Below are positions 14,156 through 41,253 of a DNA stretch of 64,000 nucleotides, piece after piece. The notes beneath the pieces were generated by a model that saw only the letters and a list, made by a program, of their open reading frames with translations, did no database searches and was not told the origin of the DNA. Made by a program: the position numbers and the translations under genes. Within the stretch, counting starts at the first letter, position 1; each line of letters opens with the position of its first letter. The stretch lies in the NCBI GenBank assembly GCA_964436305.1, contig CAYTCI010000001.1, positions 48,037-112,036 of the forward strand, written 5' to 3'. Source of the stretch: an uncultured Cytophagia bacterium. GTDB lineage: Bacteria; Zhuqueibacterota; Zhuqueibacteria; Residuimicrobiales; Residuimicrobiaceae.

Positions 14156-15592
14156 ATGGAATCCCTGAGCGACCGGTTTCGCCGGATGCGGCAGAAAGTG
14201 GCAGGATGGGGGCAGGAGAGTGTCTGGCGCTTTTGGGATGAACTCGATCCGGCGGCGCAGGCGCGCTTTATCGACCAGCTCGAGCAGCTGGATGAGCACT
14301 TTATCACTTCCCTGAGTGGCGGCCCCTGGCCGCCGGCAGAAACCCGGTTCGGTTCGCTCGCCGACTTGACGCCCCTGGAGCACATTCCGCTGCCCTCCAC
14401 CCCGGAGGAAGAGCGGAGTTGGCAGCGGGCAAAACAGCGGGGAGAGGCGCTGCTCGCCGAAGGAACGGTGGCCGTACTGGTCGTCGCCGGCGGGCAGGGC
14501 ACCCGGCTCGGCTTCCCGGGGCCGAAGGGGCTCTTCCCGGTCGGCCCGGTGAGCGGACGCTCGCTCTTTCAGTTTCACACCGAACAAATCCTCGCACTGG
14601 AGCGGCGTTTCGGCGCCACCCTGCCCTTTTATATCATGACCAGCCCGGCCAACCACCAGGAGACGGGCGACTTTTTCATCCGCAACGGTTTTTTTGGCAA
14701 GGATCCGGAGAGCGTGCGATTTTTTCCGCAGCGCATGCTGCCGGTCTTCGATCGCCAGGGACGGCTGCTGCTGGAAGAGAAGGGCCAGGTGAGCCTCTCG
14801 CCCGATGGCCACGGCGGCGTGCTGCATGCGCTCAACCGGCATCACCTCCTCGAGGATATGCAACAGCGGGGCATCCGCCAGCTCTATTATTTCCAGGTGG
14901 ACAATGTGCTGGCCCGGATCGCGGATCCGGTCTACCTCGGTTTTCATGACGAAAAGGCCGCCGAGCTCTCCGCCAAAACGGTCTACAAACGCGATCCCTG
15001 GGAAAAACTGGGCAATATCGGACGACTCGATGGCCACTTCCAGGTCATCGAGTATACCGAGCTGCCGGATGAGCTCAAGACCGCCCGCAACGCCGAAGGC
15101 AAACTGCTCTTCGGGCAGGGCAGCATCGCCATTCATCTCTTCTCGGTCGATTTTCTTGCCCGCCTGCTGCAACAGCAGATCGAACTGCCCTATCATGTTG
15201 CCTATAAAAGGATGGCCAGTCTCCCCGATCAGGCAGGCGACGAAGGAGCCGACGGTCTGAATGGTGTCAAATTCGAGCAGTTCATCTTCGATGCCTTCCG
15301 CTTTGCCAGTCGGGTCATGGTGCTGGAATGCGACCGGCGTCTGGAGTTCAGCCCGATCAAGAACCGTGAGGGAGAGGATTCGCCGGAGAGCGCCCGCCGC
15401 GACCTCGGAGAGTTTTTCGCCGGTTGGCTCGAACGCTGCGGGCATCCGCCCAGGCGCCATGCCGACGGCTCGCTCGCCGTCCGGCTGGAGATCAGCCCGC
15501 TGGTCGCCCTCTCGGCCGAAGAGCTCAGGGCGCGATTGCCCCGCCAACTGGATGCGGCAGCCGATCTGCTGCTTGAGGATCAGACCGGATGA
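14156..15592 (+). CDS. UDPGP-family nucleotide-sugar pyrophosphorylase (UAP1/UDP-sugar pyrophosphorylase-like)
   Basis: VLVVAGGQGTRLGFPGPKGLFPV, SPDGHGGV and YYFQVDNVL blocks typical of the eukaryote-type UTP--glucose-1-P uridylyltransferase family. Starts 3 nt after the lon stop. Confidence 0.82.
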   Translation: MESLSDRFRRMRQKVAGWGQESVWRFWDELDPAAQARFIDQLEQLDEHFITSLSGGPWPPAETRFGSLADLTPLEHIPLPSTPEEERSWQRAKQRGEALLAEGTVAVLVVAGGQGTRLGFPGPKGLFPVGPVSGRSLFQFHTEQILALERRFGATLPFYIMTSPANHQETGDFFIRNGFFGKDPESVRFFPQRMLPVFDRQGRLLLEEKGQVSLSPDGHGGVLHALNRHHLLEDMQQRGIRQLYYFQVDNVLARIADPVYLGFHDEKAAELSAKTVYKRDPWEKLGNIGRLDGHFQVIEYTELPDELKTARNAEGKLLFGQGSIAIHLFSVDFLARLLQQQIELPYHVAYKRMASLPDQAGDEGADGLNGVKFEQFIFDAFRFASRVMVLECDRRLEFSPIKNREGEDSPESARRDLGEFFAGWLERCGHPPRRHADGSLAVRLEISPLVALSAEELRARLPRQLDAAADLLLEDQTG

Positions 15593-15658
15593 ACCGGGGC
15601 TGCCGGGCAGGGTAACCACACCCCGGCCCGGAACCCGGTCACGAGAGAGAACCCAAGT

Positions 15659-18600
15659 GTGAACAAAGAACCTGAAGATCATAGCGGAGCCCAGCCCAAG
15701 GCCCAGCGCAAACCTCGTCGGTGGTGGCGCCGGCTGCTGCGCTTTTTCCTCTTTTCCCTCCTGGCGCTTCTTTTCCTGCTGCTGACAGCCGTCATTGTCT
15801 TGCGGCTGCTCTATCCGCCCGAGCGCCTTCGGGCCATGGCCAACGACGCCGCCCACACCTATCTCAATCGCCAGCTCAGCATCGGCAAGGTCTGGATCCA
15901 TCCCCTGCGCGGTATCATCCTTGAGGATCTCCGGCTCTCACCCTGGCCCGATTCCACCAGGGGCTATGATCTCTTCGTCTTCCGCAAGCTCAGCATCAAG
16001 AAACTGGCCCTCCATTATTCGCTGGCCGATATCCTGGACCGCCAGCTCCATCTGACCGCCATTGAGATCAGCGAGCCCGAGATGGAGATCTTTGTCGATA
16101 TGCTGGATACAACCGCGGTCGATCTGGCGGGCCTGGTGCGGACCAATCTGCCGCTGGCGATCGATCTCAAGTCCTTTCACATGCGCGAGTGCAAGATCAG
16201 GATCATCCTGGCTGACACGCTGACCCGGCAGGAGGTCTATATCGGCGATCTCAGCGGCGCCCTGGAGGAGGTCCGGCTGCCGGCGGGAGGATTCCTGGCG
16301 CATGACAGCGCCTTGCAAGTGCAGGTTGCCCTTCACGCTGATCACACGCCGCTTATGGTCGGCCTGAGCGATCTGCATGCCGGTTCCTCACAGCGGCTGC
16401 AGGGGCGCATGGATCTCGATGTGCAACTGGCCCTCCACAGTTACCGCGACATCGCTCTCCGGCTGGGTCTGGGTTTGCAGGAGCTGGTGCTGGAGGAGAA
16501 CGACGGAGTGCGCGTCAAGGCCACGCGCGTGCCGCCGACGCTGGGGCTTGCCCTCGCGGCGCATGGAGATGGTCTGGGCGGGGTCGCACGCCTCGATTCC
16601 CTGGTCATCGCCCTCGACGGCCAAAAGTGGCTGCAAGCGGAGGGGGAGGCCGACAGCCTCTATCGCCAGCCCCGCCTTACCATGCGGATGCCCTATGCGG
16701 CGATCCCGCTCGCCCGGACGCTCGATTGGGCGCGGCAGTTGCTGCCGGCCGGGACGGTGCCCGATCTCCACTGGATCGATGACCAGGCTGCACTCAGTTG
16801 CAGCGGCGCCCGCCTCGCGGGCTCCCCGGCCGGGGGATGGCGCCTCGATCTCCCGCTGCGGCTGACGCAAGCCGGCCTGCGGATGAACCGCGATTCCCTC
16901 CGCGTCTTCGGCTTTGGGGCGGAGTTCACCCTGGAGGGGCTGCTGGGAGCCGCGGGGATGGAGCGCGCTGAGCTCAAGGGGACCCTGGCCTGTGACAGCC
17001 TCCTTTTTATGCCGCCCGCCGGGGAGGCCCTGACCGCCGGTTCCGGCCGCGTGACCATCGATGCGTTGATCAATCCGCAAATGCTGCCCGAACGGCTGGG
17101 CGCCTCCCTGCAGATCAGCAACCTGATGGGCATGAAACTGGCGGGGGGATGCGACCTGCGCGGCGGCGCCACCCTGAACGATCTGCGCGGCAGCGGCGAG
17201 CTGCGGCTGACGGGGATCGATCTGGCGCGGTTTCCTGTGCTGCAGGTGGCCGGCGAGAGTGAGGCGGAGCTGACCGTGCGGATCCATTCGCTGGCGGATA
17301 TCCAGCCGCAGCTTCGCGTCCTCACCTCGCCGCTGACCTTGCGCGTCGACGAGGAACCCGTGCTCCTCAGCGATCTCAATCTCACCCTCGCCGCGCAGGC
17401 CGGCACCGACACCACCTTCAGCGTCCTGCATCTCGATTCCCTGCGCTTCTCCCTGAACCGCATGATCGAGGGCGCGGCCGCGGCCGAGATCCAGCTGGCG
17501 CCGGCGCTCGCGGCGGAGCTGGATCTCCGCCGGATCATCTTCCGCCATGATGCCATCTGGAACTATATCCCCGAATCGCTGCGCGAGGCCTTCGCCGAAG
17601 CGGAGCTGACCGGCACGACCACCCTCAGTGGCCGCGGCCATGTCGCAATGGCCGGGGGGGCGATGCAATACACCCTCGCAGCGCAGCTGGCCACCCTCAA
17701 TACCTCCTTCCTCGCCCCGGCACAGTTCACCATGGTTCATGGCCTTGGCATCCAGGCCCGGTTGACTGGCGGGAGCCGCGAGGGCGTCCGCGCGGCCCTG
17801 AGCGTCGGCCTCGATACCCTGCGTACCGGCCGGACCGAAAGTGTCGCGTTCCATCACAACCGTCTTGAACTCAATGTAAACAGTGCCGATCCGGCGGCGC
17901 TGATCGAGGCCAATGGCCGCCTCGAACTCCCGGATCTCTTCACCAGCGCCGAATTCCAGACCCGGATCGCCGATATGGCCAAAGCCCTGCGCGTCAAGGC
18001 GCAGTTCACACTGACCCAGAACGTCGCTGATACCTTACGGCTGCCGCAGGGCATCAAGCTGCGCGGCGAGAGCCGCTTCTCGATCCAGCTGGAGGCTGAC
18101 ACCGCGCGAGCGCACCTCGCTGCGCAAGTGGCGACCAAAGCCCTCTCCCTCTTCATGCCAGGCAACCTGCTCGTCCGCGATGTGGCAGCCGATATCCATC
18201 TGGATCAGGAGGTGGATTTGCTGCACAAGCGCCTGGTCGGCATGCCCAACTACCAGATCGCCTCGCCGAGTACCGCTCTGATGGATTATCTGGTCTATCG
18301 CGGCTATTATCAGAGGCGCCTGCCAGGGCTCTCGCATGTGCACATCGCCCGCGTCGAATTCGGCGACTATGCCGTGGATGATATCGACCTCGAACTCAGC
18401 GCCCGGCAGGGAAGGCTGGAGATCCCGGAGGCGATGGCCAGAATCTATGGCGGCAATATGGGATTCCGGGCGGCGGTCGATCTGGCTGAAGGCGATCTGG
18501 GCAAGGCCAGCTTTGACGTCAATGCCCATTTCGCCAACATCAATTCGGACCTGCTGCTGCCCAGAGGGCAGCGCCAGTCCCGGCAAGGCATCATCAATGC

Positions 18601-18946
18601 CAACCTCGATCTGCATGGCACAGGCCTGGACGTGGCGGCCGGCATCCGGCTGGAGGGTCAGGCCTACATCACGCAAATCGGCCCCAAAGTGGCCGACAAT
18701 CTTCTCCGCTCTCTCGATCCACAAGGCAAGGATTCGAGCATCCGCTCCACGCGGCTGCTGATCAATCAGGGCTTCAAGCCCAAACTGATGACCTTCGTGC
18801 TGCGTCATGGCTATCTCTATCCCGAGATCATCTTCGACCAGCCCTGGTACTTTCCGATGCGCCTCAGCGGCGGCAAGGTCGAGCTGGCGCGCATCCCACT
18901 GGACTTTTTCCTGCGAGCATCCGCTACGGGCACCGAGGCGCGCTGA
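15659..18946 (+). CDS. AsmA-like/TamB-YdbH-like giant envelope protein (N-terminal membrane anchor, long repetitive beta-rich body)
   Basis: GTG start. Basic N-terminus plus one TM helix (RRWWRRLLRFFLFSLLALLFLLLTAVIVLRLL), followed by the AsmA-type opening AAHTYLNRQLSIGKVWIHPLRGIILEDLRLSP. About 1,000 aa of beta-strand-like repeats. A DUF1318-like gene lies downstream, as in E. coli ydbH-ynbE-ydbL. Confidence 0.68.
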   Translation: MNKEPEDHSGAQPKAQRKPRRWWRRLLRFFLFSLLALLFLLLTAVIVLRLLYPPERLRAMANDAAHTYLNRQLSIGKVWIHPLRGIILEDLRLSPWPDSTRGYDLFVFRKLSIKKLALHYSLADILDRQLHLTAIEISEPEMEIFVDMLDTTAVDLAGLVRTNLPLAIDLKSFHMRECKIRIILADTLTRQEVYIGDLSGALEEVRLPAGGFLAHDSALQVQVALHADHTPLMVGLSDLHAGSSQRLQGRMDLDVQLALHSYRDIALRLGLGLQELVLEENDGVRVKATRVPPTLGLALAAHGDGLGGVARLDSLVIALDGQKWLQAEGEADSLYRQPRLTMRMPYAAIPLARTLDWARQLLPAGTVPDLHWIDDQAALSCSGARLAGSPAGGWRLDLPLRLTQAGLRMNRDSLRVFGFGAEFTLEGLLGAAGMERAELKGTLACDSLLFMPPAGEALTAGSGRVTIDALINPQMLPERLGASLQISNLMGMKLAGGCDLRGGATLNDLRGSGELRLTGIDLARFPVLQVAGESEAELTVRIHSLADIQPQLRVLTSPLTLRVDEEPVLLSDLNLTLAAQAGTDTTFSVLHLDSLRFSLNRMIEGAAAAEIQLAPALAAELDLRRIIFRHDAIWNYIPESLREAFAEAELTGTTTLSGRGHVAMAGGAMQYTLAAQLATLNTSFLAPAQFTMVHGLGIQARLTGGSREGVRAALSVGLDTLRTGRTESVAFHHNRLELNVNSADPAALIEANGRLELPDLFTSAEFQTRIADMAKALRVKAQFTLTQNVADTLRLPQGIKLRGESRFSIQLEADTARAHLAAQVATKALSLFMPGNLLVRDVAADIHLDQEVDLLHKRLVGMPNYQIASPSTALMDYLVYRGYYQRRLPGLSHVHIARVEFGDYAVDDIDLELSARQGRLEIPEAMARIYGGNMGFRAAVDLAEGDLGKASFDVNAHFANINSDLLLPRGQRQSRQGIINANLDLHGTGLDVAAGIRLEGQAYITQIGPKVADNLLRSLDPQGKDSSIRSTRLLINQGFKPKLMTFVLRHGYLYPEIIFDQPWYFPMRLSGGKVELARIPLDFFLRASATGTEAR

Positions 18947-18979
18947 TGGCGCCGGCGGACCCGCCGGTCAGGAGGTGTA

Positions 18980-19534
18980 ATGAACAGAGCAGCTTTCGCG
19001 GCTGGCGCCTTGCTGGCGCTCGCCTGTTTGCAGTGCAGTGTCAAGGCACCGGAACTCAATGTCACCGGCGAGAAGACCGCGCTGGAAAATCAGGTGCTGG
19101 GGTCCTACCAGCAAATCGAGAACGACTCCTGGCTCATCGCCTCGGCGCGGGCAGTCGGCTCGACCCCCACCACACTCCTCTCCGGCAACAAAAAAGAGGT
19201 GATGGAGGCGGTGCAGAATCGCAAGTTTAACAAGGATGAAGTCGACGAGCTCAAGGCCGGCAAGGTGGTCGGCGAGAACAACCGCGGGCTGCTGCAGACC
19301 CTGGCCAACACCCGCTATGACGCCGACCCGGAGTACCGCCTCTATGTGGACCAGATCGTCGGTGAGGAGAACACCGACCGCCAGGTCATTTATGAGCGGG
19401 CCCTGAGCGTCAACCAGACCACCACCGAGAACACCCAGGCCAACGAGATCTTTGCCAAACTCAATTTCGACAACTCACCCGCCGGGACGATGATTCAGAA
19501 ACCGGACGGGAGCTGGGTGGAAAAAGGAAAGTAA
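18980..19534 (+). CDS. lipoprotein with DUF1318 (YdbL-like) C-terminal half
   Basis: GGAGG RBS and lipobox LALAC. The C-terminal half matches the remembered YdbL pattern: AGKVVGENNRGLL...DRQVIYERAL...AGTMIQKPDGSWVEKGK. Confidence 0.58.
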   Translation: MNRAAFAAGALLALACLQCSVKAPELNVTGEKTALENQVLGSYQQIENDSWLIASARAVGSTPTTLLSGNKKEVMEAVQNRKFNKDEVDELKAGKVVGENNRGLLQTLANTRYDADPEYRLYVDQIVGEENTDRQVIYERALSVNQTTTENTQANEIFAKLNFDNSPAGTMIQKPDGSWVEKGK

Positions 19535-19539
19535 TCCGC

Positions 19540-22500
19540 ATGGAACGCCGGCTTTTCCTGCTCATCGCTTTATCTCTGCTGGTGCCACTCGGGCGTCCCG
19601 CGCCGGTGGTGGCGCAGCAACCCGATCTGCGCCAGGTGACCACACACCCCGACATCGACCTCTCGCCGCGCCTCTCACCGGACGGCAAATTTCTGGCCTA
19701 TGTCTCGCGGCAAACCTACAACTTTGATATCTGGATCAAGAGCACGACCAGCACGCGTTCCCGCCAGGTCACCTTCAACAAGGCGGATGATTTTTACCCG
19801 GTCTGGTACCCCGACAGCCGTTCGCTGGTCTTTGTATCGCAAAAGGAGGATGCGGCGGGGGATATCTGGCGCATCCGTTTCCGCGAGGTCAAGGGCGACC
19901 TCATTCCCCGAGGTGAGCCGGAGAAGATCAGCCACTATCAGGGCTTTGACAGCTATCCGACGGTCTCGCCCGATGGCAAAAAGATCGCCTGGGTTTCGGA
20001 CGCCAGCGGCCGCGATGAAATCTGGTTTCATAACGACAATACCGGCAAGACCAGCCAGCTGACCTTCCTCGGCGGTACCCATCCGGCCTGGAGCTCCCGC
20101 CAGGACCTGATCGCCTTCACCTCCTTCCGCGCCGGCCCGGCCTGCGGCGGTGACATCTGGCTGATGAACCTGCATGGGCCGCGGCCGCAAGAGGAGGCCG
20201 ACTCCTCCTGGTGGGATCCGCGAGAGAACCCCGTCTATCGTCTCACCCGCAGCGGTGCGGCGGATGGCTTCCCGACCTGGTCGCCTGACGCCAGCCGCAT
20301 CATTTTTCTCCGGTTCAGCCAGGACACCAACGGCGATTCGCTGCTGACGCCCGCCGACCGCGGGGCGCTCTGGAGCATGGCGCCGGCCCCGGCGCCGGAA
20401 CAACCCACCCTCTCCTCATCGCCGCTGGCCGGGCTGCTGCTCCCCTCCTTCAATCCGGCGCTGGTGCGCCGTGCGATGCCCCTGACCAGCGACAGCGATA
20501 CCATCATGCAGCCCTGGTGCGGCGGCGACAGCCGGGTCTACTTTTCATCGGATCGCGGCGGCAACCTCGATATCTGGTCGATCCCGCTTGATGGGCCGGT
20601 GCCGCGTGCAGCCACCGCCGCCGAACAATATCGCTGGGCCGAGGCAACCTTTCCCCTGCCCGAACGCGCCTCGCGCTGGTACCTGGGGCCGCTGCTGACC
20701 GGTTACCAAAGCATTCAGCCCGATGCCGAGGAAGGGCGTATCCTCAATGAACGCTTCCTCGCCCTGCGCCGCCTCGCTGATTTCTTTCCCGATAGCAGCC
20801 GCCATACCGCCGAGGCCCTCTATGGCATGGGGGTGGTCGCGATGCTGCAGGGTGATGAGGAGTTGGCCCGCACCTGCCTGCATCTGGTATTGAGCCGCTA
20901 TGGCAGCGAGCGCCAGACCGCCGCGTGGACCGAACTCGCCCTGCTGGGGCTGCAGGAGGGCGGAACCGGTGCGGATGCTTCCCGTACCGCCCGGCTGAAG
21001 CGCGGCGTGGACGACATTCTGCAGCGTTACGCCGACCAGAGTGCCCCCGCTGCCGCGGGGCGGCTGGCGATCGGCGATCTCTATGCCGCGGCCGGCGACC
21101 AGACGCGCGCCTTCCAGGAATATGCCCGGGTCCGCAAGGAGTATCCCGGGGAGCGTGACGCGTGCGCCGCCAGTCAGCTCAAGATAGGTGACCTCTTCCG
21201 GCGCTTCGCCAGCCAGGAGGAGGTGGTCCAGGCTTATCTGCGCGTCATCGACGATTATCCCGACCAGCGTCAGTGGATGTTGCCGGCGCGAGACCGCGTC
21301 CTCGACCTGCTCATCGCCGGCCGCAGCGGCGCCGCCGCCTATATCGCGCGCTACCGCGAAATCGTCGGGCTCTATCGCCGCTATCCGGAACTCGCCGCCG
21401 AAGCGCAGTTCCGCATCGGCAACCTGCTGCTAACCGGCAAGGAGTACCGCGCCGCCATCCTCGAGTTCGAGGCGGTCGAAACCCTCTTCCCCGACCTGGT
21501 CGATGAGGTCTTTGCGGCGCGGATGAGCCGGGCCGAGGCCTATCTCCGCCTCGGCGACAGCGCCACCGCCCTCTCCCTGCTCGACCAGCTGAGCAAGGAG
21601 GAGCAGGCCACGCGGCCCGACCTGGCCGAGCAGGCCTCCGACCGCCTGGTCGCGGCCCTGCTCTCCTCAGCCGACCATCTGCGCGCTAGCGGTGACCTGC
21701 AGCTGGCGGCCCTGCGCTACCGCAATGCCTGGGAACGCGATCTGCGTAACCTCCACGCCCACCGCGGTTATCTGGAGTGCCTCTATTACCAGAAAAAGAT
21801 CGATCAGGCCATCGATGAGTACCGCCAGCTTAATATTCTCCATCCCAAAGACAACATCCTCACCTATGCCCTGGGCTTGGCCTACAGCTACAAGGGGACC
21901 GAAAAGGCGGAGCTCTACAACGATCCGGACGGCCTCGATCCGGTCTTCCTGGTCAACCGCTCGAGCGCGGTCATCGCCCGCGCCCTCTCCTACGACTATA
22001 CCATGGTGCCGGGCTATTTGACCATCGCCTTCAACTTTGAAATGATGGAGAACTATGAGGCACGGCAGCAGGCCAGGGCGATTCATCCCGTTCGCCGGGC
22101 CTGGAAAGCCCTGACAGCGCCGATCGTGGATATCTATCATCGCCTGACCTTTTATGAAGAGCGCAAGCCGGCCCGCTACTACGAGCGTGCCATCCATGAA
22201 CTCAACAAGGCGATCGTTCTCAACGACGAGAACAAGGAGCCGCTCCTCGAAGCCAATCTCGCGCTCAATCTCGCCAACAACTATTACAGCCTGGGCGAAT
22301 TCGGCTTCGACAAGGCCTATGCCTATTATCAGGTCAAACTCCTCTATGATTCCACCTTCATTGACAAGCAGCGCGAGGCCCTCATTTACGAGCGCATGGG
22401 CCATTGTGCGCTGGTGACCGAGGATCTGGAAAAAGGCCCGCGCTTCCTCAAGCATGCGATCGCACTCTATGCCGCCATGGACAAGGAAACGAAGGTGCTG

Positions 22501-25500
22501 CTCAATACCAAGCGTCTTGCCCTGCTCTATGAGATTGGGGAACGCTATCAGGCCGCGATCGATTATTATCAGGCCGCCGCCGAGATTGAGAAGAGGGGGA
22601 ACAATCTCGTCGACCTGATGCGCAGCTATCGCAGCGTGGCCTACAACTACCTCCGCCTCAACGAGCCGCAGGAGGCGATCCTCTATGCCCGCCGTGCCCT
22701 CGAACTGCTCGACAGCGGCAAGATCAAAAAGATCAAGGGCGAAAGCAGCCGGATGGAGATCGGATTCCTTGGCTGGTATTTCCCGGTCCCCTTTATCGAT
22801 TTCAGCACGATGGGGGTGAATTCGCTCAAGAGTTTTACCACCGAGGACGAGCGCGCACTGCTCTTCTCCATTTTCGCCGACAGCTACCAGCAAAACCGCG
22901 AGTATGATTCCGCCATCGAGTTCGTCCGCAAAAAAAGCGAGCTCTTTCACAAGCGCAAGAACTATCGTGCCGAGGCGACCTTTGAGAACAATCTGGCCTA
23001 TATCTGTTATCTCAAAGGCGATTATCGCGAGGCGTGGCGCCACTATGGCCGCTCCCTCAGGCTGTGCCAGGAGTACAAGATCGCCGATGGCGTTATTCAG
23101 AACAGCATCAATCTGGGGCGGCTCGCCAGCGGAATGAACCTGCAGCAGCAATTGGGGCGAGAGGCGAGCGGCACTTTGGTGGCACAGCGGCACTATGCCG
23201 ACTCGGCGGCGGTGGTGCTCAAGGATGCCCTGCGTTTTCTCGAGCAAAGTACGCTCTTTTACGGGCGGGATCGTTCGCAGCTGCTGCTGCAGCTGGCCGA
23301 GGTCCTGTTGATCGAGCCGCAGCCGGCTGGGGGGGGAAGTGCTGCCACCGGATTGCCCGGCACGCTGGCACGACTGGATCAGCTGGGCCAGGCCAAACTC
23401 TACCTCGACGAGGCGCTCGATCTCAGTCGCCGTTACGGGCTCGAGCGCAACGAGCTGGCGGCCGATTTTGCCATCGCCGAGGTCTACCGCAATGCGGGCG
23501 ATACCGATCAGGCCTGGGAGCAGCTCAACCGCTGCCGCCGCCTGGCCCTGCGCCAGGGCGAATTCGAGCTCGCCTGGCGGATCGACCTCGCCCTTGGCGA
23601 TCTGGTTGACGAGATGAGCCGCGAGAGCAAATTCCGGTATGCCATCCAGAAGACACCGCTGGAATTCTACCTGGAAGCGGTCGATCTGCTCGAGGCGCAC
23701 TCCGCCGTTTCGGTCGGGGCGATGGCGAGCGATTCGCGCCGGGTGCGTCTGCAGCCCTATAACCGGGTAATCACCGCCCTGGCCCGGATGGGCGATCAGA
23801 AAGGCGCCCTGGTCTTCGCCGAACGCCAGCGCGCCAAGCTCTTTCTGGATCTGAGCCGCCAGGAAACGATTGAACTGCGCAAGGAGCGGCACAAGATTTT
23901 TCTCGGCAACGCCCGTTACGTCCAGGATCGGATCGATGTCCTCAGCAGCGAGCTCTTGCGCGCCCGCAGCCAGAGCGACATTACCGCCAAGCAGGTGCGG
24001 GCATGGCGACAGGAACGGGAGAAGTACCAGCAGGAATATGAGGAGATCCTGCAGCAGGTCCGCAGCGAGGTGCCGGAGCTCGAGGGCATGGTGCGCGTGC
24101 AGCCGGTCGAACTGCTGCGGCTGCAGCGGACGCTGCAAAACCGGGAGGCGGTGGTCGTCAATCAGCTGCTGCCGGCCGGGATGCTGGTCTGGACCATCCG
24201 GCCGCAGTCGATTGACATGGGGGAGATCCCTCTCGCCGGAGCGGAGGTGGCGGCCGCGCTGCGCCGCTGGAGCGAGGCGGGGCAGGCGGCCACGATCCTG
24301 CAGGATACCCTCTGGCAGGCGATGACCGCCCCCCTGCTGCGACTGCCGGTGGAGGTACAGCGCCTGGTCGTCATCCCGGACGGTGCGCTGCTCGGTATGC
24401 CCTGGGGTGCCTCCGTACAGGCCGCCCGGGGGCATGAGCTGGCTGTCACGCTCAGCTCCAGTCTGACCGGCTATTATTATGCCGAGCAAAAACGCAAACT
24501 GCAGGGTGACACGATCCACCTCGCTGATAATCCGCCGCTCGCCGGCAGCGATTCCTTTGTCGCCTGGGAGCGCGGGCTTTTCTACAGTGGGCTGCCGGGA
24601 TTCCTGACAAGCCTGTGGCCAGGGGATCAGGCCCGTGAACGCGAATTTTTCGACCTCTTTTATTCCCATCTCAAGAGCATGCCGCCAGCCGCCGCCCTGG
24701 CGCTGACACAGCGGGATTTGGCGGGCCGTGGTCTCCCCTTTTCGGAATGGGGACGCTTTCAGTACTATGGATTCGGGGGCATGACCGAGGCGGAGGAGCG
24801 TCAGTTCGCCGTCGAGGGTTTTACCGGGACCGTACGCCGCGGCCACAGCGCCTTCCAGCTGGGCGAATGGCACGACGCCATCGCCTTCTATGAGGAGGCG
24901 ATGCAGATGGCCGAACGCCAGGGCGATAGCGAGAGTAAAACCCGACTGGAGGAGCGCATCCTTGAAGCGGCGGTCAATGGCGGCTTTTGGAGCAAGGCGA
25001 TCGAGATTCAGCAGCGCGCCCTGCAGACGGCGAAAGGCGCCGGCAAGGTCGATGCCCTCGCCAGCAGCCTGAACAATCTCGCCTACTTTTATACGCGCAA
25101 CGGCCAGTATGACGAGGGCGTTGCCGCGAAAAAAGAGTATGCCGAGCTGGCGCAAAAATACGGTCTGCAGGAGCAGGAGGCGCAATCCCTGCGCGAAACC
25201 GGGCTGATCTATGAACGCGGCGGACAATACGACCAGGCCATGGCGCTCTTCGATCAGGCCTTTGCACTCTACGAACGGATTGGCAAACCCCTCGGCATGG
25301 GCCAGTCTCTGCGGGACAAGGGCCGCATCGAATTTCTCTATCGCGACCATTACACGGCGGCGCTGGCGCTGCAGGAGCAGGCGCTGGCGCTGCTGCGCTC
25401 CGAGGCGGCGGGGAGCGATTTGATCGATGCCCTGCACAATCTCGGCATTACCCACGAAAAAATGGGCGAGTATCCCGCGGCGCTGCGGATCCAGACCGAG

Positions 25501-27687
25501 GCCCTGGCCATTGCGCGTAAAAACGGCAGCGACAGAGAGGTGGCCCTTTCGCAGCAAAACCTCGCCAATGTGCAGTGGAAAATGGGGGAGTACCAGGCGG
25601 CCCTGGCCAACCAGAATGCGGCCCTGGAGACCTTTACCCGGCTGAATGAGGAACCGCTGCTGCAAACGGCCTATGCGACGCGGGGTTTGCTCGCCCTCAG
25701 CCTGGGCCAGCCGCAGCAGGCCCTCGAGTTCGAGCAAAAGGCGCTCGTGATCGCCACTCGGCTCGATGACCGTCTCAATCAGGCGACCATACAGAAAAAC
25801 CTCGGCATGATCTATCGCGCCGATGGCCGTTTCGAGCTGGCCCGCGCCAGCTTTGAGCAGGCCCGCGTGCAGGACTCGCTGCTGGTCTCCCGGCGCGGCC
25901 TGGCCTACGATTATCGCAATCTCGCGGCCATCTATGGCCTGATCGGCCGCGGCCCGGAGGGGGTGGGGCTGGCTCGCCGGGCCCTGGATTTGAGCCGCGA
26001 TATTCTCGACCGCCGCAATGAAGCGCAGAGCCTGCTCGTTCTCGGAACCCTGCAGCGGCGGTTCGGGGCGCCCGACTCGGCCCGGCGTCATCTGGCTATG
26101 GCGGCGGCCCTGGCCGATTCAATGTTCATGCCCGACATCGGCTGGCGGGCCCAACGGCAGTTGGCTGATCTGTACGATGCCGAAAAAAATCGCAGCAGCC
26201 AGATCGCTGCCCTCTATGCCAGTCTGGAGATCATCGAAGGTCTGCGCGCCCGCATCCGGGTGGAGGACTACGCCGCCGGCTTCATCGATGACAAGCTCGA
26301 GGTCTACGGCGCCCTGATCGACGTGCTGGCGGCGGCGGAGCGCACCGGTGAGGCACTCGAAGTGGCCGAGCGCGCCCGCGCCCGCGGTTTCCTCGACCTG
26401 CTCGGTCAGAAGCAGATCCCCTTCGCCGACCCGGCCGATGCCCGCCTGGCCGCGGCCGGCGACAGCCTGCAAACGGAACTGGCCCGCGCCCAGAGTGAGC
26501 TTCTCTACCTGCAGACACAAAACGATCCCCTGCAGGCGCAGCATCTGCGTCAGCTGCAGGAACGGATCGGGATGCTGCGCCGCAGCTATTCGGACCATCT
26601 CACCCGCGTCCGCACCACCAATCCCGAGCTCTCCACCCTGCTGGAGGTCCGGCCCCTGGGCAAAGAGGCGATCCAGAGGCTCGTCCCGGAAAAAGGTGGC
26701 ATGCTGGTCTATCATCTCCTGCGCGACCGTCTCTTCATCTGGCTGGTCACACCGCAAGCCATCCAGCTGCAGCGTGTGGAGATCGGCGAGGCGGCGCTGG
26801 CGGAGCAGGTCTCGACGCTGCGCCGTACCCTCGGTCGTCAGCTCTCGATAGACGAGATCGCACGCACCCTCCACGATGAGCTGATCAAACCCTTCGGCGC
26901 GGAGATCGCCCGCTGCGGCCACCTGGTGATCCTGCCGCACGGCGCCCTGCATTACCTGCCCTTTGCCGTGCTGCAGGATGACGCGAAACGCTATCTCGGG
27001 GTCGAACACACCCTCTCCTTCGCTGCCAGCGCCTCGGTGCTCGCCAGCTGTTTGGCCAGGGGGGAGTCCTATGTCAGTCAGGAGAAACGGCAGATGCACG
27101 TCCTCGCCTTCGGGGATCCCGACCTGGGCGACCACCAGTACGATCTCCCCTTTGCCGAGCGCGAGGCGGCCAGCCTGAAGCGGTACTATCCGCAGGTCAC
27201 ACTCTTCACCGGTCCCGAGGCCAGCGAGACCCACCTGCGGGCGGCCTTGCCCTCGCCGCCACTGGTGCTTTTCAGCTGCCATGGCGTTTATGATGAGGCC
27301 AACCCCCTGCTCTCCGCACTGCTGCTGGCGCCGGACGGCCGTAACGACGGGCGTCTGGAGGCGCACGAGATCTTTGCCCTCAAGATGGAGGCCTATCTGG
27401 TGGCGATGAGCGCCTGCGAGACCGGGATCGGGGCGCTGCGCAGCGGCGATGAGATGATCGGTCTGACGCGCAGTTTCACCTATGCGGGGGCGGCCTCGCA
27501 GCTGGCCACGCTGTGGAAGGTGGACGATCTGGCGGCGGCGGTGCTGGTCAAGCGCTTTTTCCGCCATCTGGCTGAGGGTGAGTCGCGGCCGGAGGCGCTG
27601 CGCAAGGCGCAGCAGATCGTTGCGGCGGAGCTCAATCCCTATCCCGCCTTCTGGGCAGCTTTCCAGATCAGCGGCGATTATCGCTGA
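19540..27687 (+). CDS. giant exported PD40(TolB-like propeller)-TPR-CHAT protease-like protein (2,715 aa)
   Basis: Signal-like N-terminus MERRLFLLIALSLLVPLGRPAPVVAQQ. PD40 blades (SPDGKFLAYVS, SPDGKKIAWVSDASGRDEIW, WSPDASRIIF, SSDRGGNLDIWSI). Very long TPR arrays. C-terminal CHAT with HLVILPHGALHYLPF, FSCHG (His codon 27280-27282), MSACETG (Cys codon 27415-27417) and FWAAFQISGDYR. Confidence 0.9.
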   Translation: MERRLFLLIALSLLVPLGRPAPVVAQQPDLRQVTTHPDIDLSPRLSPDGKFLAYVSRQTYNFDIWIKSTTSTRSRQVTFNKADDFYPVWYPDSRSLVFVSQKEDAAGDIWRIRFREVKGDLIPRGEPEKISHYQGFDSYPTVSPDGKKIAWVSDASGRDEIWFHNDNTGKTSQLTFLGGTHPAWSSRQDLIAFTSFRAGPACGGDIWLMNLHGPRPQEEADSSWWDPRENPVYRLTRSGAADGFPTWSPDASRIIFLRFSQDTNGDSLLTPADRGALWSMAPAPAPEQPTLSSSPLAGLLLPSFNPALVRRAMPLTSDSDTIMQPWCGGDSRVYFSSDRGGNLDIWSIPLDGPVPRAATAAEQYRWAEATFPLPERASRWYLGPLLTGYQSIQPDAEEGRILNERFLALRRLADFFPDSSRHTAEALYGMGVVAMLQGDEELARTCLHLVLSRYGSERQTAAWTELALLGLQEGGTGADASRTARLKRGVDDILQRYADQSAPAAAGRLAIGDLYAAAGDQTRAFQEYARVRKEYPGERDACAASQLKIGDLFRRFASQEEVVQAYLRVIDDYPDQRQWMLPARDRVLDLLIAGRSGAAAYIARYREIVGLYRRYPELAAEAQFRIGNLLLTGKEYRAAILEFEAVETLFPDLVDEVFAARMSRAEAYLRLGDSATALSLLDQLSKEEQATRPDLAEQASDRLVAALLSSADHLRASGDLQLAALRYRNAWERDLRNLHAHRGYLECLYYQKKIDQAIDEYRQLNILHPKDNILTYALGLAYSYKGTEKAELYNDPDGLDPVFLVNRSSAVIARALSYDYTMVPGYLTIAFNFEMMENYEARQQARAIHPVRRAWKALTAPIVDIYHRLTFYEERKPARYYERAIHELNKAIVLNDENKEPLLEANLALNLANNYYSLGEFGFDKAYAYYQVKLLYDSTFIDKQREALIYERMGHCALVTEDLEKGPRFLKHAIALYAAMDKETKVLLNTKRLALLYEIGERYQAAIDYYQAAAEIEKRGNNLVDLMRSYRSVAYNYLRLNEPQEAILYARRALELLDSGKIKKIKGESSRMEIGFLGWYFPVPFIDFSTMGVNSLKSFTTEDERALLFSIFADSYQQNREYDSAIEFVRKKSELFHKRKNYRAEATFENNLAYICYLKGDYREAWRHYGRSLRLCQEYKIADGVIQNSINLGRLASGMNLQQQLGREASGTLVAQRHYADSAAVVLKDALRFLEQSTLFYGRDRSQLLLQLAEVLLIEPQPAGGGSAATGLPGTLARLDQLGQAKLYLDEALDLSRRYGLERNELAADFAIAEVYRNAGDTDQAWEQLNRCRRLALRQGEFELAWRIDLALGDLVDEMSRESKFRYAIQKTPLEFYLEAVDLLEAHSAVSVGAMASDSRRVRLQPYNRVITALARMGDQKGALVFAERQRAKLFLDLSRQETIELRKERHKIFLGNARYVQDRIDVLSSELLRARSQSDITAKQVRAWRQEREKYQQEYEEILQQVRSEVPELEGMVRVQPVELLRLQRTLQNREAVVVNQLLPAGMLVWTIRPQSIDMGEIPLAGAEVAAALRRWSEAGQAATILQDTLWQAMTAPLLRLPVEVQRLVVIPDGALLGMPWGASVQAARGHELAVTLSSSLTGYYYAEQKRKLQGDTIHLADNPPLAGSDSFVAWERGLFYSGLPGFLTSLWPGDQAREREFFDLFYSHLKSMPPAAALALTQRDLAGRGLPFSEWGRFQYYGFGGMTEAEERQFAVEGFTGTVRRGHSAFQLGEWHDAIAFYEEAMQMAERQGDSESKTRLEERILEAAVNGGFWSKAIEIQQRALQTAKGAGKVDALASSLNNLAYFYTRNGQYDEGVAAKKEYAELAQKYGLQEQEAQSLRETGLIYERGGQYDQAMALFDQAFALYERIGKPLGMGQSLRDKGRIEFLYRDHYTAALALQEQALALLRSEAAGSDLIDALHNLGITHEKMGEYPAALRIQTEALAIARKNGSDREVALSQQNLANVQWKMGEYQAALANQNAALETFTRLNEEPLLQTAYATRGLLALSLGQPQQALEFEQKALVIATRLDDRLNQATIQKNLGMIYRADGRFELARASFEQARVQDSLLVSRRGLAYDYRNLAAIYGLIGRGPEGVGLARRALDLSRDILDRRNEAQSLLVLGTLQRRFGAPDSARRHLAMAAALADSMFMPDIGWRAQRQLADLYDAEKNRSSQIAALYASLEIIEGLRARIRVEDYAAGFIDDKLEVYGALIDVLAAAERTGEALEVAERARARGFLDLLGQKQIPFADPADARLAAAGDSLQTELARAQSELLYLQTQNDPLQAQHLRQLQERIGMLRRSYSDHLTRVRTTNPELSTLLEVRPLGKEAIQRLVPEKGGMLVYHLLRDRLFIWLVTPQAIQLQRVEIGEAALAEQVSTLRRTLGRQLSIDEIARTLHDELIKPFGAEIARCGHLVILPHGALHYLPFAVLQDDAKRYLGVEHTLSFAASASVLASCLARGESYVSQEKRQMHVLAFGDPDLGDHQYDLPFAEREAASLKRYYPQVTLFTGPEASETHLRAALPSPPLVLFSCHGVYDEANPLLSALLLAPDGRNDGRLEAHEIFALKMEAYLVAMSACETGIGALRSGDEMIGLTRSFTYAGAASQLATLWKVDDLAAAVLVKRFFRHLAEGESRPEALRKAQQIVAAELNPYPAFWAAFQISGDYR

Positions 27688-27847
27688 GGGCGAAGCGGGC
27701 GGGCAAAAAAGAGCGGGGTATCCGGCAAAAAGCAGTTGCGTCGCACGGAAAAACTTGATAATTTAGCCCAGGCTGCACCCGGCCGCGGCGAACCGGGTGG
27801 CGGAGCAAATCCCTGTTGGCAGGTTGAATCCTAACCGGTGAAGGCCC

Positions 27848-29122
27848 ATGAAAAAGACCCTCGCATTGATCCTGGCCGGCGGCCGGGTCGATGAACTCTC
27901 CGTATTGACGCTGTATCGTCCCAAATCGGCTTTGCCCTTTGGCGGGCTCTTCCGGGTCATCGATTTTCCCCTCAGCAATCTGCTCCATTCCGGCATCGAA
28001 CGCGTCGGGATCCTCTCGCAATACCGTTCCGACTCCCTCATCAATCATATCGGCTCGGGTGCGGGCTGGGATATGATCGGCAGCCAGCGTGGGATCACCA
28101 TGCTGCCGCCGATGAAGGGGACGCAGAGTTCCGACTGGTACCGGGGGACGGCCGATGCGGTCTACCAGAATCGTGAGTTCATCGCCCGCCATCATCCGGA
28201 TTACATCCTGGTGCTCTCCGGCGATCACATTTATCGGATGGATTATCAGGAGATGATCGCCTTTCATGAACGGATGGAGGCCGATCTCACCTGCGCCTTC
28301 GTTGAAGCCCCGGCCGGCGGCATGGAGCGTTTTGGCCAGGGGGTCATCGAGGGCGACGATCCCATGGGCGGGCGCCTCTCCCGTTATGTCGAAAAGCCTA
28401 ACGAATCGATCTCTCCCTGGGCCTCGATGACGATCTACCTCTTCAGCCGCGACACCCTGCGCTACATCCTCGATGAGATGATGCAGCCGCCGGCGACCGA
28501 GCATTTCGGCCGCGACATTCTGCCGGTGCTGATCGGCAAGAAGAAGGTTTTCGGCTACAAGTTCCGCGGGCCCTGGGGCTATACCCGCACCATCGACGAA
28601 TATTATGCGGCCAGCATGGCCCTGCTCTCCGAGACGCCGGCGCTGCGGCTGGAAGAATGGCCGGTCCGCACCAATCTCGACAATGAGCGCATCCGCGACC
28701 GCGCGCCGGCCTTGATCGGCGCCGGTGCCGAGTGCAGCAAGACCCTGCTGCATCATGGCTGCGAGATCCAGGGCAAGGTGTACAACTCGATCCTCTTCCC
28801 CGGCGTGCGGGTCAAGGCCGGGGCAACGGTCGAAAACTCGATCCTGATGTTCGACACTGTCGTCGAGCAGGGCGCCCGTCTGAGCCGGGTCATCGCCGAC
28901 GTCGAGGTGACGATCGGCCCCAATGCGGTCATCGGCGACGGCGAGGAGAGCGGCGCCAACACCGAATATCCCGATCTGCTCAATTCCGGCCTTACCCTCA
29001 TCGGCCGCAACACCCGCCTCCCCGGCGGCATGCGCGTGGGGCGGAACTGCATCGTCTATCCCAACAAAAAGGAAGCCGATTTCTCGAGCCTGAATATTGC
29101 CAATGGAAGGACCCTCAAATGA
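27848..29122 (+). CDS. glucose-1-phosphate adenylyltransferase paralog with degenerate nucleotide-binding loop (GlgD-like, probable regulatory subunit)
   Basis: ADP-Glc PPase fold (RPKSALPFGGLFRVIDFPLSN, WYRGTADAVYQN, LSGDHIYRMDY, C-terminal left-handed beta-helix). The G-rich loop reads LAGGRVDEL instead of LAGGxGxRL. Confidence 0.82.
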   Translation: MKKTLALILAGGRVDELSVLTLYRPKSALPFGGLFRVIDFPLSNLLHSGIERVGILSQYRSDSLINHIGSGAGWDMIGSQRGITMLPPMKGTQSSDWYRGTADAVYQNREFIARHHPDYILVLSGDHIYRMDYQEMIAFHERMEADLTCAFVEAPAGGMERFGQGVIEGDDPMGGRLSRYVEKPNESISPWASMTIYLFSRDTLRYILDEMMQPPATEHFGRDILPVLIGKKKVFGYKFRGPWGYTRTIDEYYAASMALLSETPALRLEEWPVRTNLDNERIRDRAPALIGAGAECSKTLLHHGCEIQGKVYNSILFPGVRVKAGATVENSILMFDTVVEQGARLSRVIADVEVTIGPNAVIGDGEESGANTEYPDLLNSGLTLIGRNTRLPGGMRVGRNCIVYPNKKEADFSSLNIANGRTLK

Positions 29123-30375
29123 GAAATACCGTCGCGTTACTGCTCGCCGGCGGCATGGGCAGCCGCCTCAATATCCTGGGATGGATGCGCGCCAAGCCGG
29201 CCGTCCCCTTCGGCGGCTGCTATCGGCTCATCGATTTCACTCTCAGCAATGCGATGTATTCCGGGATTCAGCAGATCGGCATTCTCACCCAGTACCGGCC
29301 CTACTCCCTCATGGGCCACATCGGCTCGGGCGAATCCTGGGATCTGGTCGGACGCAGCCGCTGCGCCAAGGTGCTGCCGCCGAGCACCGGCATCGACGAT
29401 TATGACTGGTACCGCGGCACCGCCGACGCCGTCGCCCAGAACATGCAGTTTGTCCACCATTATCATGCCGAGCGCCTGCTGGTCCTCTCCGGGGACCATA
29501 TCTATCGCATGGACTACGCCCCGATGGTCGAGTTTCACAAGGAGAAGAAAGCGCACATCACCATCGCGATGATGCGCGTGCCCTGGGAGGAGACGCGCCA
29601 TTTCGGCATCGGCATCACCAACAAAGAGCAGCGCATCGTCGAGTGGGAGGAAAAACCGGAGAAGGCGAAGAGCAATCTTGCCTCGATGGGCGTCTACGTC
29701 TTCGATACGGCCTATCTGGCGGATGCCCTGGCCAAGCGCAGCGGCCATGATTTCGGCAAAAACATTATTCGCGATGCAATCCAGGCGAAAAGTGTCTACG
29801 CCTACCCCTTTGAGGGCTATTGGGCCGATGTCGGGACGATCAAGGCCTACTGGCAGGCGAGCATGGATATCCTGCTGCCTGAATCGGGCCTCCGGCTGCA
29901 GGAGTGGGGGGTGCGTACCAATTTCGACGAGGAGGGGCTCGAGGGCGACCGGCCGCCGGTGCATATCGGCAGCGAGGCGCAGGTGATCAATTCACTGGTC
30001 TCGGCGGGCTGCCGGATCGAGGGTTTTGTGCAGAACAGCATCCTCTCGCCGGGCGTTCGTGTCGAAAAAGGCGCCGAGGTGATCGATTCGGTGATCATGC
30101 AGGACACCGTGGTGAGCGCCAAAGCCCGGCTCTTCCGGGTGATCGCCGACAAGAATGCCCGCTTCGGCGAGGGGGTCATCGCCGGGGGTGTCGAGGCCGA
30201 TGAACCCAACGAAAAATATCCCGAGCATCTCTACAGCGGCCTGACGGTCATCGGCAAGCGCGCGGATATCCCGGCCGGAGTGCAGATTGCCGCCAACACC
30301 ATCGTCGAGCCGCTGGCCTCCGCCAGCAGTTTTTCCGGCATCACCCTGCGGACCGGTTCCTATGTGAAACGCTGA
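29119..30375 (+). CDS. glgC: glucose-1-phosphate adenylyltransferase (catalytic-type GlgC)
   Basis: Canonical LLAGGMGSRL, RAKPAVPFGGCYRLIDFTLSN, WYRGTADAVAQN, LSGDHIYRMDY. The ATG at 29119 overlaps the upstream stop (ATGA). The track ORF start at 28732 is an out-of-gene extension. Confidence 0.93.
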   Translation: MRNTVALLLAGGMGSRLNILGWMRAKPAVPFGGCYRLIDFTLSNAMYSGIQQIGILTQYRPYSLMGHIGSGESWDLVGRSRCAKVLPPSTGIDDYDWYRGTADAVAQNMQFVHHYHAERLLVLSGDHIYRMDYAPMVEFHKEKKAHITIAMMRVPWEETRHFGIGITNKEQRIVEWEEKPEKAKSNLASMGVYVFDTAYLADALAKRSGHDFGKNIIRDAIQAKSVYAYPFEGYWADVGTIKAYWQASMDILLPESGLRLQEWGVRTNFDEEGLEGDRPPVHIGSEAQVINSLVSAGCRIEGFVQNSILSPGVRVEKGAEVIDSVIMQDTVVSAKARLFRVIADKNARFGEGVIAGGVEADEPNEKYPEHLYSGLTVIGKRADIPAGVQIAANTIVEPLASASSFSGITLRTGSYVKR

Positions 30376-30395: not shown

Positions 30396-30424
30396 AGCGC
30401 CCGGACCACCGGGCGCTTTTTTTT
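30396..30424 (+). terminator. Rho-independent terminator after glgC
   Basis: Stem agcgcccgg (30396-30404) with ccgggcgct (30409-30417), loop acca, then T8. Confidence 0.8.
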
Positions 30425-40212: not shown

Positions 40213-41253
40213 TTACAAAGAATGGCGCAGGACGGTTTCGATCTGCTCACAGGCCTCCGCGACTGCTGCGTCATCGACGTCAAGGTGGGTGACGAGACGG
40301 ACACGGGTGGGAGCGGTGGCGATGCAGAGCACACCTTTGTCTTTCAGTTTAACAACCAAATCAGGCGCATTTAATCCAGTTTTTCTCAGCTCAACGATGA
40401 CTATATTGGTTTGCGCCGCTTCAAGATCGACCTCGATGGGAGGAAATTTGACGAAAGTCTCAGCAATTTGACGGGCGTGGCGGTGATCGATTGCCAGGCG
40501 CTCAATATGATGATCGAGGGCATAGAGGCCGGCTGCGGCGAGGAGACCGGCCTGGCGCATGCCGCCGCCCCACATTTTGCGGAAGCGGTGGGCGCGGTCG
40601 ATAAACTCGGCGGTGCCCGTCAGCACCGAACCAACCGGAGCGCCCAGTCCCTTGGAGAGACAAACCGAGATCGAATCGAATAGGCGGCCGTACTCCAGCA
40701 GGGGGATGCCGGTGGCGACATGGGCATTCCAGATGCGCGCCCCATCGAGGTGGAGGGCCAGTCCCTGCTTGCGTGTCAGGGCCGCAATCTTTTCGATTTC
40801 GGCGAAGGGAAAGATCGCCCCGCCGGCGCGGTTATGGGTGTTCTCGAGCATCACGAGGCGGGATTGCGGGTTGTGATGGTCCGGCGGACGCAGGGCGGCT
40901 GCGATCTGCTCCGTGGTGATTGCGCCGCGCACACCTGGCAGGGGGCGGACCTGTACACCGGAAAGAGCGGCCGGCGCCCCGGCCTCATAGTTATAGATGT
41001 GGCCGTTCTCTTCACAATAGATCTCGTCCCCGGGTGAGGTATGGCTCTTGATCGCCAGCTGGTTGCTCTGGGTGCCGCTGCTGACATAAAGCGCCGCCTC
41101 CTTGCCGAAGAGGGCGGCGACCCGGGCTTGCAGCCGGTTGACGGTCGGATCTTCGCCAAAAACGTCATCGCCGACCTCGGCAGCGGCAATGGCCGCGCGC
41201 ATTTCCGGGGTTGGTCTGGTCACGGTGTCGCTGCGCAAATCGATGCTTTTCAT
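40213..41253 (-). CDS. ltaE: low-specificity L-threonine aldolase
   Basis: [38 protein letters not shown] and the PLP-fold remainder. The ATG overlaps the upstream helicase stop (ATGA, 41250-41253). Confidence 0.9.

Follow-up and report, generated by a model that had tools for sequence, protein, structure and literature searches.

What role can be assigned to a giant, apparently exported protein that ends in a caspase-like domain and whose gene follows two genes of presumed envelope proteins at a distance of a few nucleotides (nt)? This question is raised by the plus-strand gene at positions 19540-27687 of a 64,000-nt stretch of contig CAYTCI010000001.1 from an uncultured bacterium of the Zhuqueibacterota (assembly GCA_964436305.1), which is referred to as the window. 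The original prediction, made from the sequence alone, saw in the product an envelope-located, ligand-gated protease or scaffold. The reading that we favour is a periplasmic, envelope-docked scaffold which stands beside an AsmA-like/YdbL-like system and carries a regulated TPR-CHAT protease; with a probability of about 45%, it is held at somewhat below even odds. The propeller-TPR-pseudoCHAT-TPR-CHAT architecture, its conservation throughout the lineage, and its linkage to AsmA-like and YdbL-like genes appear to be undescribed. No literature pairing "CHAT domain" with "PD40" was found, and the published description of the Zhuqueibacterota does not mention CHAT or proteases.

The gene consists of one uninterrupted open reading frame (ORF) with an ATG start and 2,715 codons plus stop, as originally described, and all motifs quoted at that time are found in its translation. 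The mature product has a computed mass of ~303 kDa. Due to a G+C content of third codon positions of 0.80 in this frame, the long antisense ORFs are considered GC-rich shadows. No long internal DNA repeats were detected when the ORF was scanned for them. In place of read mapping, the window was compared with ten Logan assemblies, each built independently from a single run and containing an identical upstream protein. All ten are colinear and gap-free over positions 15000-26521 with 99.7-99.8% identity, and the final 1.1 kb of the ORF, which lie beyond the Logan coverage, are supported by >100 full-length orthologs. The 41 variant sites within the ORF comprise 30 synonymous, 11 nonsynonymous, and no stop changes, compared to 24% synonymous changes expected by chance. 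Thus, the gene is real and under purifying selection.

Furthermore, the giant protein is a member of a conserved family and not a singleton oddity. The family comprises ~130 clusters at 50% identity with a length of 2.5-2.9k amino acids (aa) and a fixed architecture; at 90% identity, the same order of domains recurs in >100 clusters of 2.6-2.9k aa. Its members are listed in databases as "CHAT domain-containing protein" or "Tol biopolymer transport system component". Full-length copies occur in ~55 species-representative genomes, mainly of candidate division KSB1/Zhuqueibacterota, with further carriers among metagenome-assembled genomes (MAGs) labelled Calditrichota and among distant Delongbacteria. 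Matches outside these lineages are limited to generic TPR-CHAT proteins of cyanobacteria, which are devoid of the propeller. Among the loci kept for comparison, each genome contributes a single one.

The sole hydrophobic segment of the protein comprises aa 5-25, shows an n-h-c layout, and ends in VVA/QQ, in agreement with the signal peptide-like N-terminus proposed before. Of 113 full-length homologs, 96 likewise possess a signal-like h-region, and most exceptions seem to result from truncated start calls, so that an N-terminus of this type is predicted to be general in the family. The cysteine content is low. Neither a transmembrane (TM) anchor nor a zinc anti-sigma domain was found in Pfam and hydrophobicity scans; likewise, these scans revealed no sorting domain of the type IX secretion system (T9SS) or other secretion tag, although another protein of the window has a T9SS domain.

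The presumed signal peptide is followed by six PD40 blade motifs at aa 46, 90, 143, 185, 248, and 328. PD40 was matched with 7.4e-31 in the whole protein and, when aa 1-400 were scanned alone, with 1e-35 in 5 stretches. The propeller matches TolB of the PDB with 4e-14, and orthologs also match Tricorn_N and Tricorn_2nd. TIGR02800 gave 2e-29 and 102.9 bits, which is below its cut-off of 343 and covers only model positions 185-388, i.e., the propeller. As judged from these profiles, the N-terminal domain is a TolB-type propeller but not TolB itself, since the score stays below the equivalog cut-off and the TolA-binding N-terminal domain is unmatched. Adjacent to the propeller, aa 493-578 form a TPR_6 segment of the YbgF/CpoB type (TIGR02795 tol_pal_ybgF 3e-14, below cut-off), so that the order of a periplasmic six-blade PD40 propeller and a YbgF-type TPR is shared with TolB and CpoB(YbgF). 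Different from TolB, however, the protein scores below equivalog cut-offs, lacks the TolB N-terminal domain, has ~2,300 extra residues, and is not encoded in a tol-pal operon.

In total, TPRs account for ~1,500 residues. TPR_12 (1.6e-53 in the whole protein) forms an array with a strict period of 40 aa and ten anchors from 1844 to 2206, and the long TPR region with its ~40-aa array had been recognised correctly. Between the N-terminal TPR regions lies a helical core with many invariant residues (aa 760-1100). In a search of 1.84e9 representatives this core matched members of this family only (62 at E<=1e-30 and 130 at E<=1e-10), and nearly all full-length matches are 2.5-2.9k aa in length with the core segment at the same position.

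At the C-terminus, a CHAT domain (PF12770) was matched with 2.9e-72 and 244 bits, compared to a cut-off of 24, at aa 2439-2713 and over model positions 2-289 of 289. The two catalytic contexts named in the original prediction, FSCHG and MSACETG, were assigned to the correct codons; FSCHG and SACETG are in register with the cHG and aCEt motifs of the solved Csx29-type TPR-CHAT structure 7zoq_A, and both positions of the dyad are at least 90% conserved among 50 family members. An AlphaFold2 (AF2) model of the C-terminal 516 aa reached a predicted local distance difference test score (pLDDT) of 87 and a predicted TM-score of 0.85. Foldseek related this model to Csx29/TPR-CHAT (~1e-12), the periplasmic domain of DdvA (2.5e-10), separase (1e-8 to 1e-6), SAVED-CHAT (7e-5), and, weakly, caspase-4. 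As judged from profile, dyad, and modelled fold, the giant protein is a bona fide CHAT-domain protein, and proteolysis is its predicted activity. Hence, the propeller, TPR, and CHAT assignments of the original prediction stand up to profile and fold searches. Overlooked, in contrast, were an internal pseudo-CHAT and the duplication of a module.

Residues ~1530-1750 show a partial CHAT match (Pfam, 1e-9) restricted to distal model positions, and the catalytic His and Cys are absent from this segment in 24 out of 24 aligned family members. Throughout the aligned family, the first CHAT is therefore a pseudo-protease. BLASTP reveals homology between segments 1380-1760 and 2200-2715 (9e-19), from which it follows that a TPR-linker-CHAT module has been duplicated in tandem. 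In the window the pseudo-CHAT is 92 codons short: positions 24517-24540 stand in frame for 300 nt of the nearest relative, locus L003 (14981-15280). Because this junction is reproduced gap-free in five independent assemblies, the deletion is regarded as a real feature of the population, and the loss of 92 codons suggests that the core of the dead domain is dispensable. A giant helical solenoid with a caspase-like end and an additional dead protease-like domain is also known from separase (Peptidase C50), and some orthologs of the giant protein show faint matches to PF03568. Separase, however, is a nuclear/cytoplasmic protein of eukaryotes in which the dead and the active protease domain lie side by side, whereas in the giant protein a 440-aa TPR array parts both CHATs, which originate from duplication of the whole module.

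The dyad is present in 99 of 120 clusters. In about a dozen full-length lineages (~10%; P0063, P0064, P0065, P0078, P0081, P0084, P0087, P0088, P0099, P0103, and P0068/P0073) one or both residues are lost or the region is unalignable. Considering dyad-bearing lineages, mean pairwise identity is highest for the CHAT (43%), followed by 38% each for propeller and core. In dyad-dead lineages, TPR_12 array, linker, and CHAT drop to 15-22%, while propeller and core hold 38-39% (core 39%). Since the array, linker, and CHAT diverge jointly while propeller and core hold, the protein evolves as two units. The dyad-lost loci L016, L017, L019, L024, L026, L029, and L057 retain both DUF1318 and AsmA-like neighbours. 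Of the earlier alternatives "protease or scaffold", the protease part is supported by the catalytically complete CHAT; as dyad-lost lineages keep the gene cluster, the sequence comparison indicates that a non-catalytic scaffold role is probably at least as conserved as proteolysis.

The plus-strand gene order in the window is Trk-HSP20-Lon-UDPGP, AsmA-like, DUF1318, and giant gene. The AsmA-like and DUF1318 genes are separated by 33 nt, and the DUF1318 stop (19534) and the giant gene start (19540) by 5 nt, exactly as stated in the original prediction. The first terminator-like site after Lon is a strong hairpin at 30396; this hairpin (30396-30417) is also the only strong one of the whole gene run from Lon to the NTP-transferases. 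Linkage was counted in those 50 related loci that extend for 800 nt or more upstream of the giant gene. A DUF1318 gene is situated on the same strand within 700 nt upstream in 38 of these and within 2.6 kb in 42, and a gene for an AsmA-like protein of ~1,090 aa is linked in 36 loci, upstream in 31 and downstream in 5. In these five, which belong to one subclade, the AsmA-like gene has moved to a place shortly after the giant gene, separated from it by a gene for an exported FecR-domain protein. At least one of the two partners is kept in 46 of the 50 loci, whereas linkage to Lon and UDPGP is limited to closer relatives; synteny extends to Trk and HSP20 as well. The envelope context proposed originally is hence a feature conserved across the family. 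Profile iteration revealed no divergent DUF1318 or AsmA copies in addition to the phmmer matches.

Table 1. Coordinates of the giant gene, its predicted parts, and its two upstream partner genes in the window.
Feature	Position	Strand	Basis
Giant ORF, 2,715 aa	19540-27687	+	Translation, >100 full-length orthologs, independent assemblies
Predicted Sec-type signal peptide, aa 1-25, MERR / LFLLIALSLLVPL / GRPAPVVA/QQ	19540-19614	+	Hydrophobicity heuristic
Six-blade PD40/TolB-type beta-propeller, aa ~28-365	19621-20634	+	PD40, PDB TolB, TIGR02800
TPR region A, aa ~400-760	20737-21819	+	TPR_6 1e-16, TPR_16
Family-specific conserved helical core, aa ~760-1100, ...YALGLAYSYKGT...NLANNYYSLGEFG...	21817-22839	+	Conservation, search specificity
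TPR region B, TPR_12/MalT-like, aa ~1100-1400	22837-23739	+	Pfam
Helical linker and pseudo-CHAT, aa ~1400-1750	23737-24789	+	Pfam, alignment, BLASTP
Regular TPR_12 array, ten 40-aa repeats, aa ~1760-2200	24817-26139	+	TPR_12 2e-48, 8 stretches
Helical linker and complete CHAT, aa 2200-2715 (CHAT 2439-2713)	26137-27684	+	Pfam 5.9e-64, AF2, Foldseek
Predicted catalytic His2581 (FSCHG)	27280-27282	+	Aligned with His of Csx29/TPR-CHAT 7zoq
Predicted catalytic Cys2626 (MSACETG)	27415-27417	+	Aligned with Cys of 7zoq
AsmA-like inner-membrane-anchored protein, repeating beta-groove type, 1,095 aa	15659-18946	+	Pfam AsmA, TM helix
YdbL-fold (DUF1318) probable lipoprotein, 184 aa	18980-19534	+	PF07027, fold match

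The AsmA-like protein reaches 36.9 bits (cut-off 29.8) with Pfam AsmA at its N-terminus, where a basic stretch and a TM helix are found, and shows a weak match at its C-terminus; DUF748/YhdP stays below the Pfam cut-off. The DUF1318 protein matches PF07027 with 46.3 bits (cut-off 27), and its gene is preceded by an AGGAGG Shine-Dalgarno sequence. An invariant Cys19 follows the h-region, though the residue preceding it is often not small. Relatives form a tight subfamily of ~190 aa in the same kinds of MAG, in which conservation of the helical N-terminal extension (CSVKAPExxVTGEKTALENQ...) exceeds that of the DUF1318 domain. With this protein as query, NCBIfam and a PDB sequence search gave nothing, whereas a fold search with the AF2 model (pLDDT 83.5) resulted in E. 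coli YdbL (28oj) as the only significant PDB match (E 6e-4, TM-score 0.80, root-mean-square deviation 2.4 A). Compared to E. coli YdbL, the probable lipoprotein of the window is about twice as long and has a conserved extra helix. A fusion of YnbE and YdbL is unsupported, since Pfam at E<=10 finds no domain in the N-terminal extension. An ORF of 94 aa at 18946-19230, between the AsmA-like and DUF1318 genes, was rejected as spurious: it lacks a Pfam match and is not in frame with the DUF1318 gene, for which a good Shine-Dalgarno sequence exists.

For E. coli, it was reported that YdbH (AsmA-like) and YnbE form a lipid bridge between inner and outer membrane, that YdbL is a periplasmic modulator of its assembly, and that YdbL is degraded by DegP unless bound to YnbE (PMC11126948; bioRxiv 10.64898/2026.03.16.712125). 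An AsmA-like and a YdbL-fold protein are common to this system and the cluster in the window, whereas YnbE was not found in the latter. Overproduction of an AsmA-family bridge lowers the activity of the periplasmic TPR-adaptor/protease pair LbcA-CtpA, and a similar link is reported for NlpI-Prc (PMC12569750). In case of these pairs a serine C-terminal processing protease acts with a separate TPR adaptor, whereas in the giant protein TPRs and a clan CD CHAT form one polypeptide. TPR-CHAT proteases such as Csx29, DdvA, and separase are inactive until a partner binds (PMC11506125).

In the favoured reading, the giant protein would be Sec-exported, soluble, and periplasmic and would be composed of two functional units. 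The first (aa ~28-1400; propeller, CpoB-like and other TPRs, core) would serve as a scaffold that binds to the envelope. The second (aa ~1760-2715; TPR array, linker, CHAT) would be a classical TPR-CHAT protease module, probably inactive until a protein partner binds to its TPRs, by analogy with Csx29, DdvA, and separase; the pseudo-CHAT would represent a degenerate copy of this unit placed between both. The gene is presumed to be co-transcribed with the AsmA-like and YdbL-fold lipoprotein genes, whose products would work together with the giant protein. Most likely, the latter would act as scaffold and quality-control or regulatory protease for a trans-envelope bridge or in a coupled remodelling of the envelope, with the CHAT protease acting on a component of the AsmA-like/YdbL-like system or of this remodelling. 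We infer a periplasmic location, protease activity, regulation by the TPRs, and functional coupling to the lipid bridge. A housekeeping character is concluded from the synteny with Trk, HSP20, Lon, and UDPGP, the single locus per genome, the purifying selection, and the fact that PADLOC assigned only a generic TPR (1e-15) to the giant protein. In sum, the gene points to a role in envelope maintenance and not in phage defence. It is tempting to speculate, though unlikely to hold in this specific form, that the giant protein is an integral component of an AsmA-type phospholipid bridge of KSB1/Zhuqueibacterota, located in the periplasm or at the outer-membrane side, that its propeller and core replace the missing outer-membrane partner of the YnbE/TamA type, and that its TPR-CHAT part controls the assembly of this bridge by proteolysis, e.g., by processing the YdbL-like lipoprotein or the C-terminus of the AsmA-like protein. 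If true, lipid-transport machinery would contain a caspase-like protease as an integral part, a mode of envelope regulation that has not been described in any bacterium.

Several observations weigh against the favoured reading. In L070 of the Delongbacteria, which is the most remote of the full-length relatives, neither partner gene occurs within 8-10 kb. Searches of the intergenic gaps and, by Pfam, of the DUF1318 extension revealed no YnbE-like gene or domain at the locus, and the AsmA-like protein was not assigned to the YdbH subtype, with the generic Pfam AsmA as its only match and nothing from NCBIfam. The gene order could reflect a general neighbourhood of envelope biogenesis instead of a physical complex. 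Finally, the loss of the dyad in ~10% of the lineages indicates that the cluster is held together by something that does not require proteolysis.

The last point leads to the alternative that survives best, although it is doubtful: the protein could have a chiefly structural role in scaffolding or tethering the envelope, as a connector similar to Tol-Pal which works through its propeller and TPRs and in which the CHAT is an accessory or mostly non-catalytic binding module. This is in good agreement with the retention of the pseudo-CHAT in 24 of 24 aligned family members, with the resemblance of the N-terminus to a TolB propeller plus CpoB/YbgF TPR, and with those lineages in which His and Cys are missing and the C-terminus drifts, yet propeller, core, and gene cluster stay. 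However, in the ~80-90% of lineages which possess the dyad, no part of the protein is better conserved than the CHAT, and SCHG and SACETG are nearly invariant, which is hard to explain without catalysis, and the Pfam match spans the full CHAT model.

Less probable still, the protein could sense phage or stress signals outside the cytoplasm and act as a protease similar to DdvA or Craspase; a foreign or damage-associated protein bound by the TPRs would activate the CHAT for cleavage of a signalling partner. The closest solved folds, Csx29 and the periplasmic anti-sigma factor DdvA (PMC11506125), speak in favour of it. DdvA of Myxococcus xanthus (8rot) is likewise an extracytoplasmic TPR-CHAT protein with a His-Cys dyad and was proposed as a signal-activated periplasmic caspase-like protease; it is a single-pass membrane anti-sigma factor with a cytoplasmic zinc anti-sigma domain and an extracytoplasmic function (ECF) sigma partner, and it controls a CBASS/CRISPR island (PMC11506125). 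As DdvA is a periplasmic TPR-CHAT protein of solved structure (8rot, PMC11506125), the original view that CHAT effectors are cytoplasmic is too strong and outdated. The additional statement that no characterised example of the architecture exists does not apply to periplasmic TPR-CHAT proteins but remains valid for the combination of propeller, TPR, and CHAT. Unlike DdvA, whose CHAT lacks three helices, the giant protein matches the full CHAT model, is predicted to be soluble, contains a propeller and a pseudo-CHAT, has about three times the mass, and has AsmA-like and YdbL gene neighbours. None of the DdvA-like features (zinc anti-sigma domain, TM helix, ECF sigma gene) was found; instead, a signal peptide and a propeller are predicted, and the neighbours are Lon, UDPGP, AsmA-like, DUF1318, and NTP-transferase genes.

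Similarly, Csx29 of the type III-E Craspase is the best structural match to the giant CHAT, with aligned His and Cys, a TPR array preceding the CHAT, and a protease regulated by partner binding, but it is a cytoplasmic protein of ~700 aa which is bound to Cas7-11, and the score of the giant protein for the Csx29 family (NF041237, 37.8 bits) is far below the cut-off of 300. Among the neighbours scanned, no cas, CRISPR, CBASS, sigma, anti-sigma, or other defence genes were present, and PADLOC returned no match for four neighbouring ORFs. Moreover, stable housekeeping synteny and restriction to a single lineage are unlike defence islands. A signalling partner could be given in some relatives by the neighbouring FecR-domain protein, which is exported and encoded directly downstream in one subclade, but its gene is absent from the window and most loci. 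This protein comprises ~255-280 aa (PF04773, 2e-12) and is encoded at 11540-12319 in L039, 18939-19733 in L041, 19112-19876 in L045, ~18287-19258 in L050, and 18643-19446 in L051; it is also found in L052, L054, L055, and L057, and it is absent from L001 as well.

Secreted proteases such as gingipain and clostripain belong to clan CD, and a degradative enzyme of this kind for nutrient acquisition would agree with the predicted signal peptide and with the TonB-dependent receptors and the T9SS cargo protein encoded in the window. This explanation is nevertheless very improbable, since the giant protein carries neither a C-terminal T9SS sorting domain nor any other secretion tag, >1,500 TPR residues and a pseudo-protease are typical of regulated, partner-specific proteases, and the conserved linkage is to AsmA-like/YdbL genes and not to uptake loci. 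An assembly chimera or fused gene call, finally, is effectively refuted: TPR repeats in MAGs are easily misassembled and this copy is ~90 aa shorter than its relatives, but length and domain order recur in >100 orthologous clusters, the ten Logan assemblies are colinear and gap-free with five of them spanning the short pseudo-CHAT junction, long internal repeats are missing, and the variants are mostly synonymous without any stop.

Some further genes of the window deserve mention. Downstream of the giant gene, two consecutive NTP_transferase/GlmU-like ORFs (27848-29122 and 28732-30375) overlap as listed, and the second one probably starts later; an antisense ORF of 362 aa (27668-28756) is a shadow of the NTP-transferase gene. 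Two TonB-dependent receptors with CarboxypepD_reg and Plug domains are each followed by an ORF of ~700 aa without Pfam match (46214-49474 and 49507-51618; 56791-59817 and 59848-62001), which corresponds to a SusC/SusD-like layout, and the protein encoded at 54065-56521 has a T9SS C-terminal sorting domain. The receptor pairs and the T9SS protein are consistent with a diderm host of the FCB type. A UvrD-type helicase is encoded on the minus strand (41250-44486), with helicase domains from aa 549 and an N-terminal extension of 540 aa without Pfam match, and positions 3610-5901 encode a seven-transmembrane receptor with an extracellular 7TMR-HDED and an intracellular HD hydrolase domain.

In outer-membrane biogenesis, it is an open problem which partners AsmA-like lipid bridges have and how they are regulated. 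A whole uncultured lineage retains a gene of this kind and a YdbL-like gene next to that of a 300-kDa scaffold-protease predicted to be exported and caspase-like. If the coupling is physical, this would represent a new accessory machine of lipid transport and a housekeeping, non-defence role of CHAT outside the cytoplasm. Furthermore, the dyad-dead lineages and the family-wide pseudo-CHAT may provide an evolutionary model for the transition of a protease module to a scaffold, as in separase.

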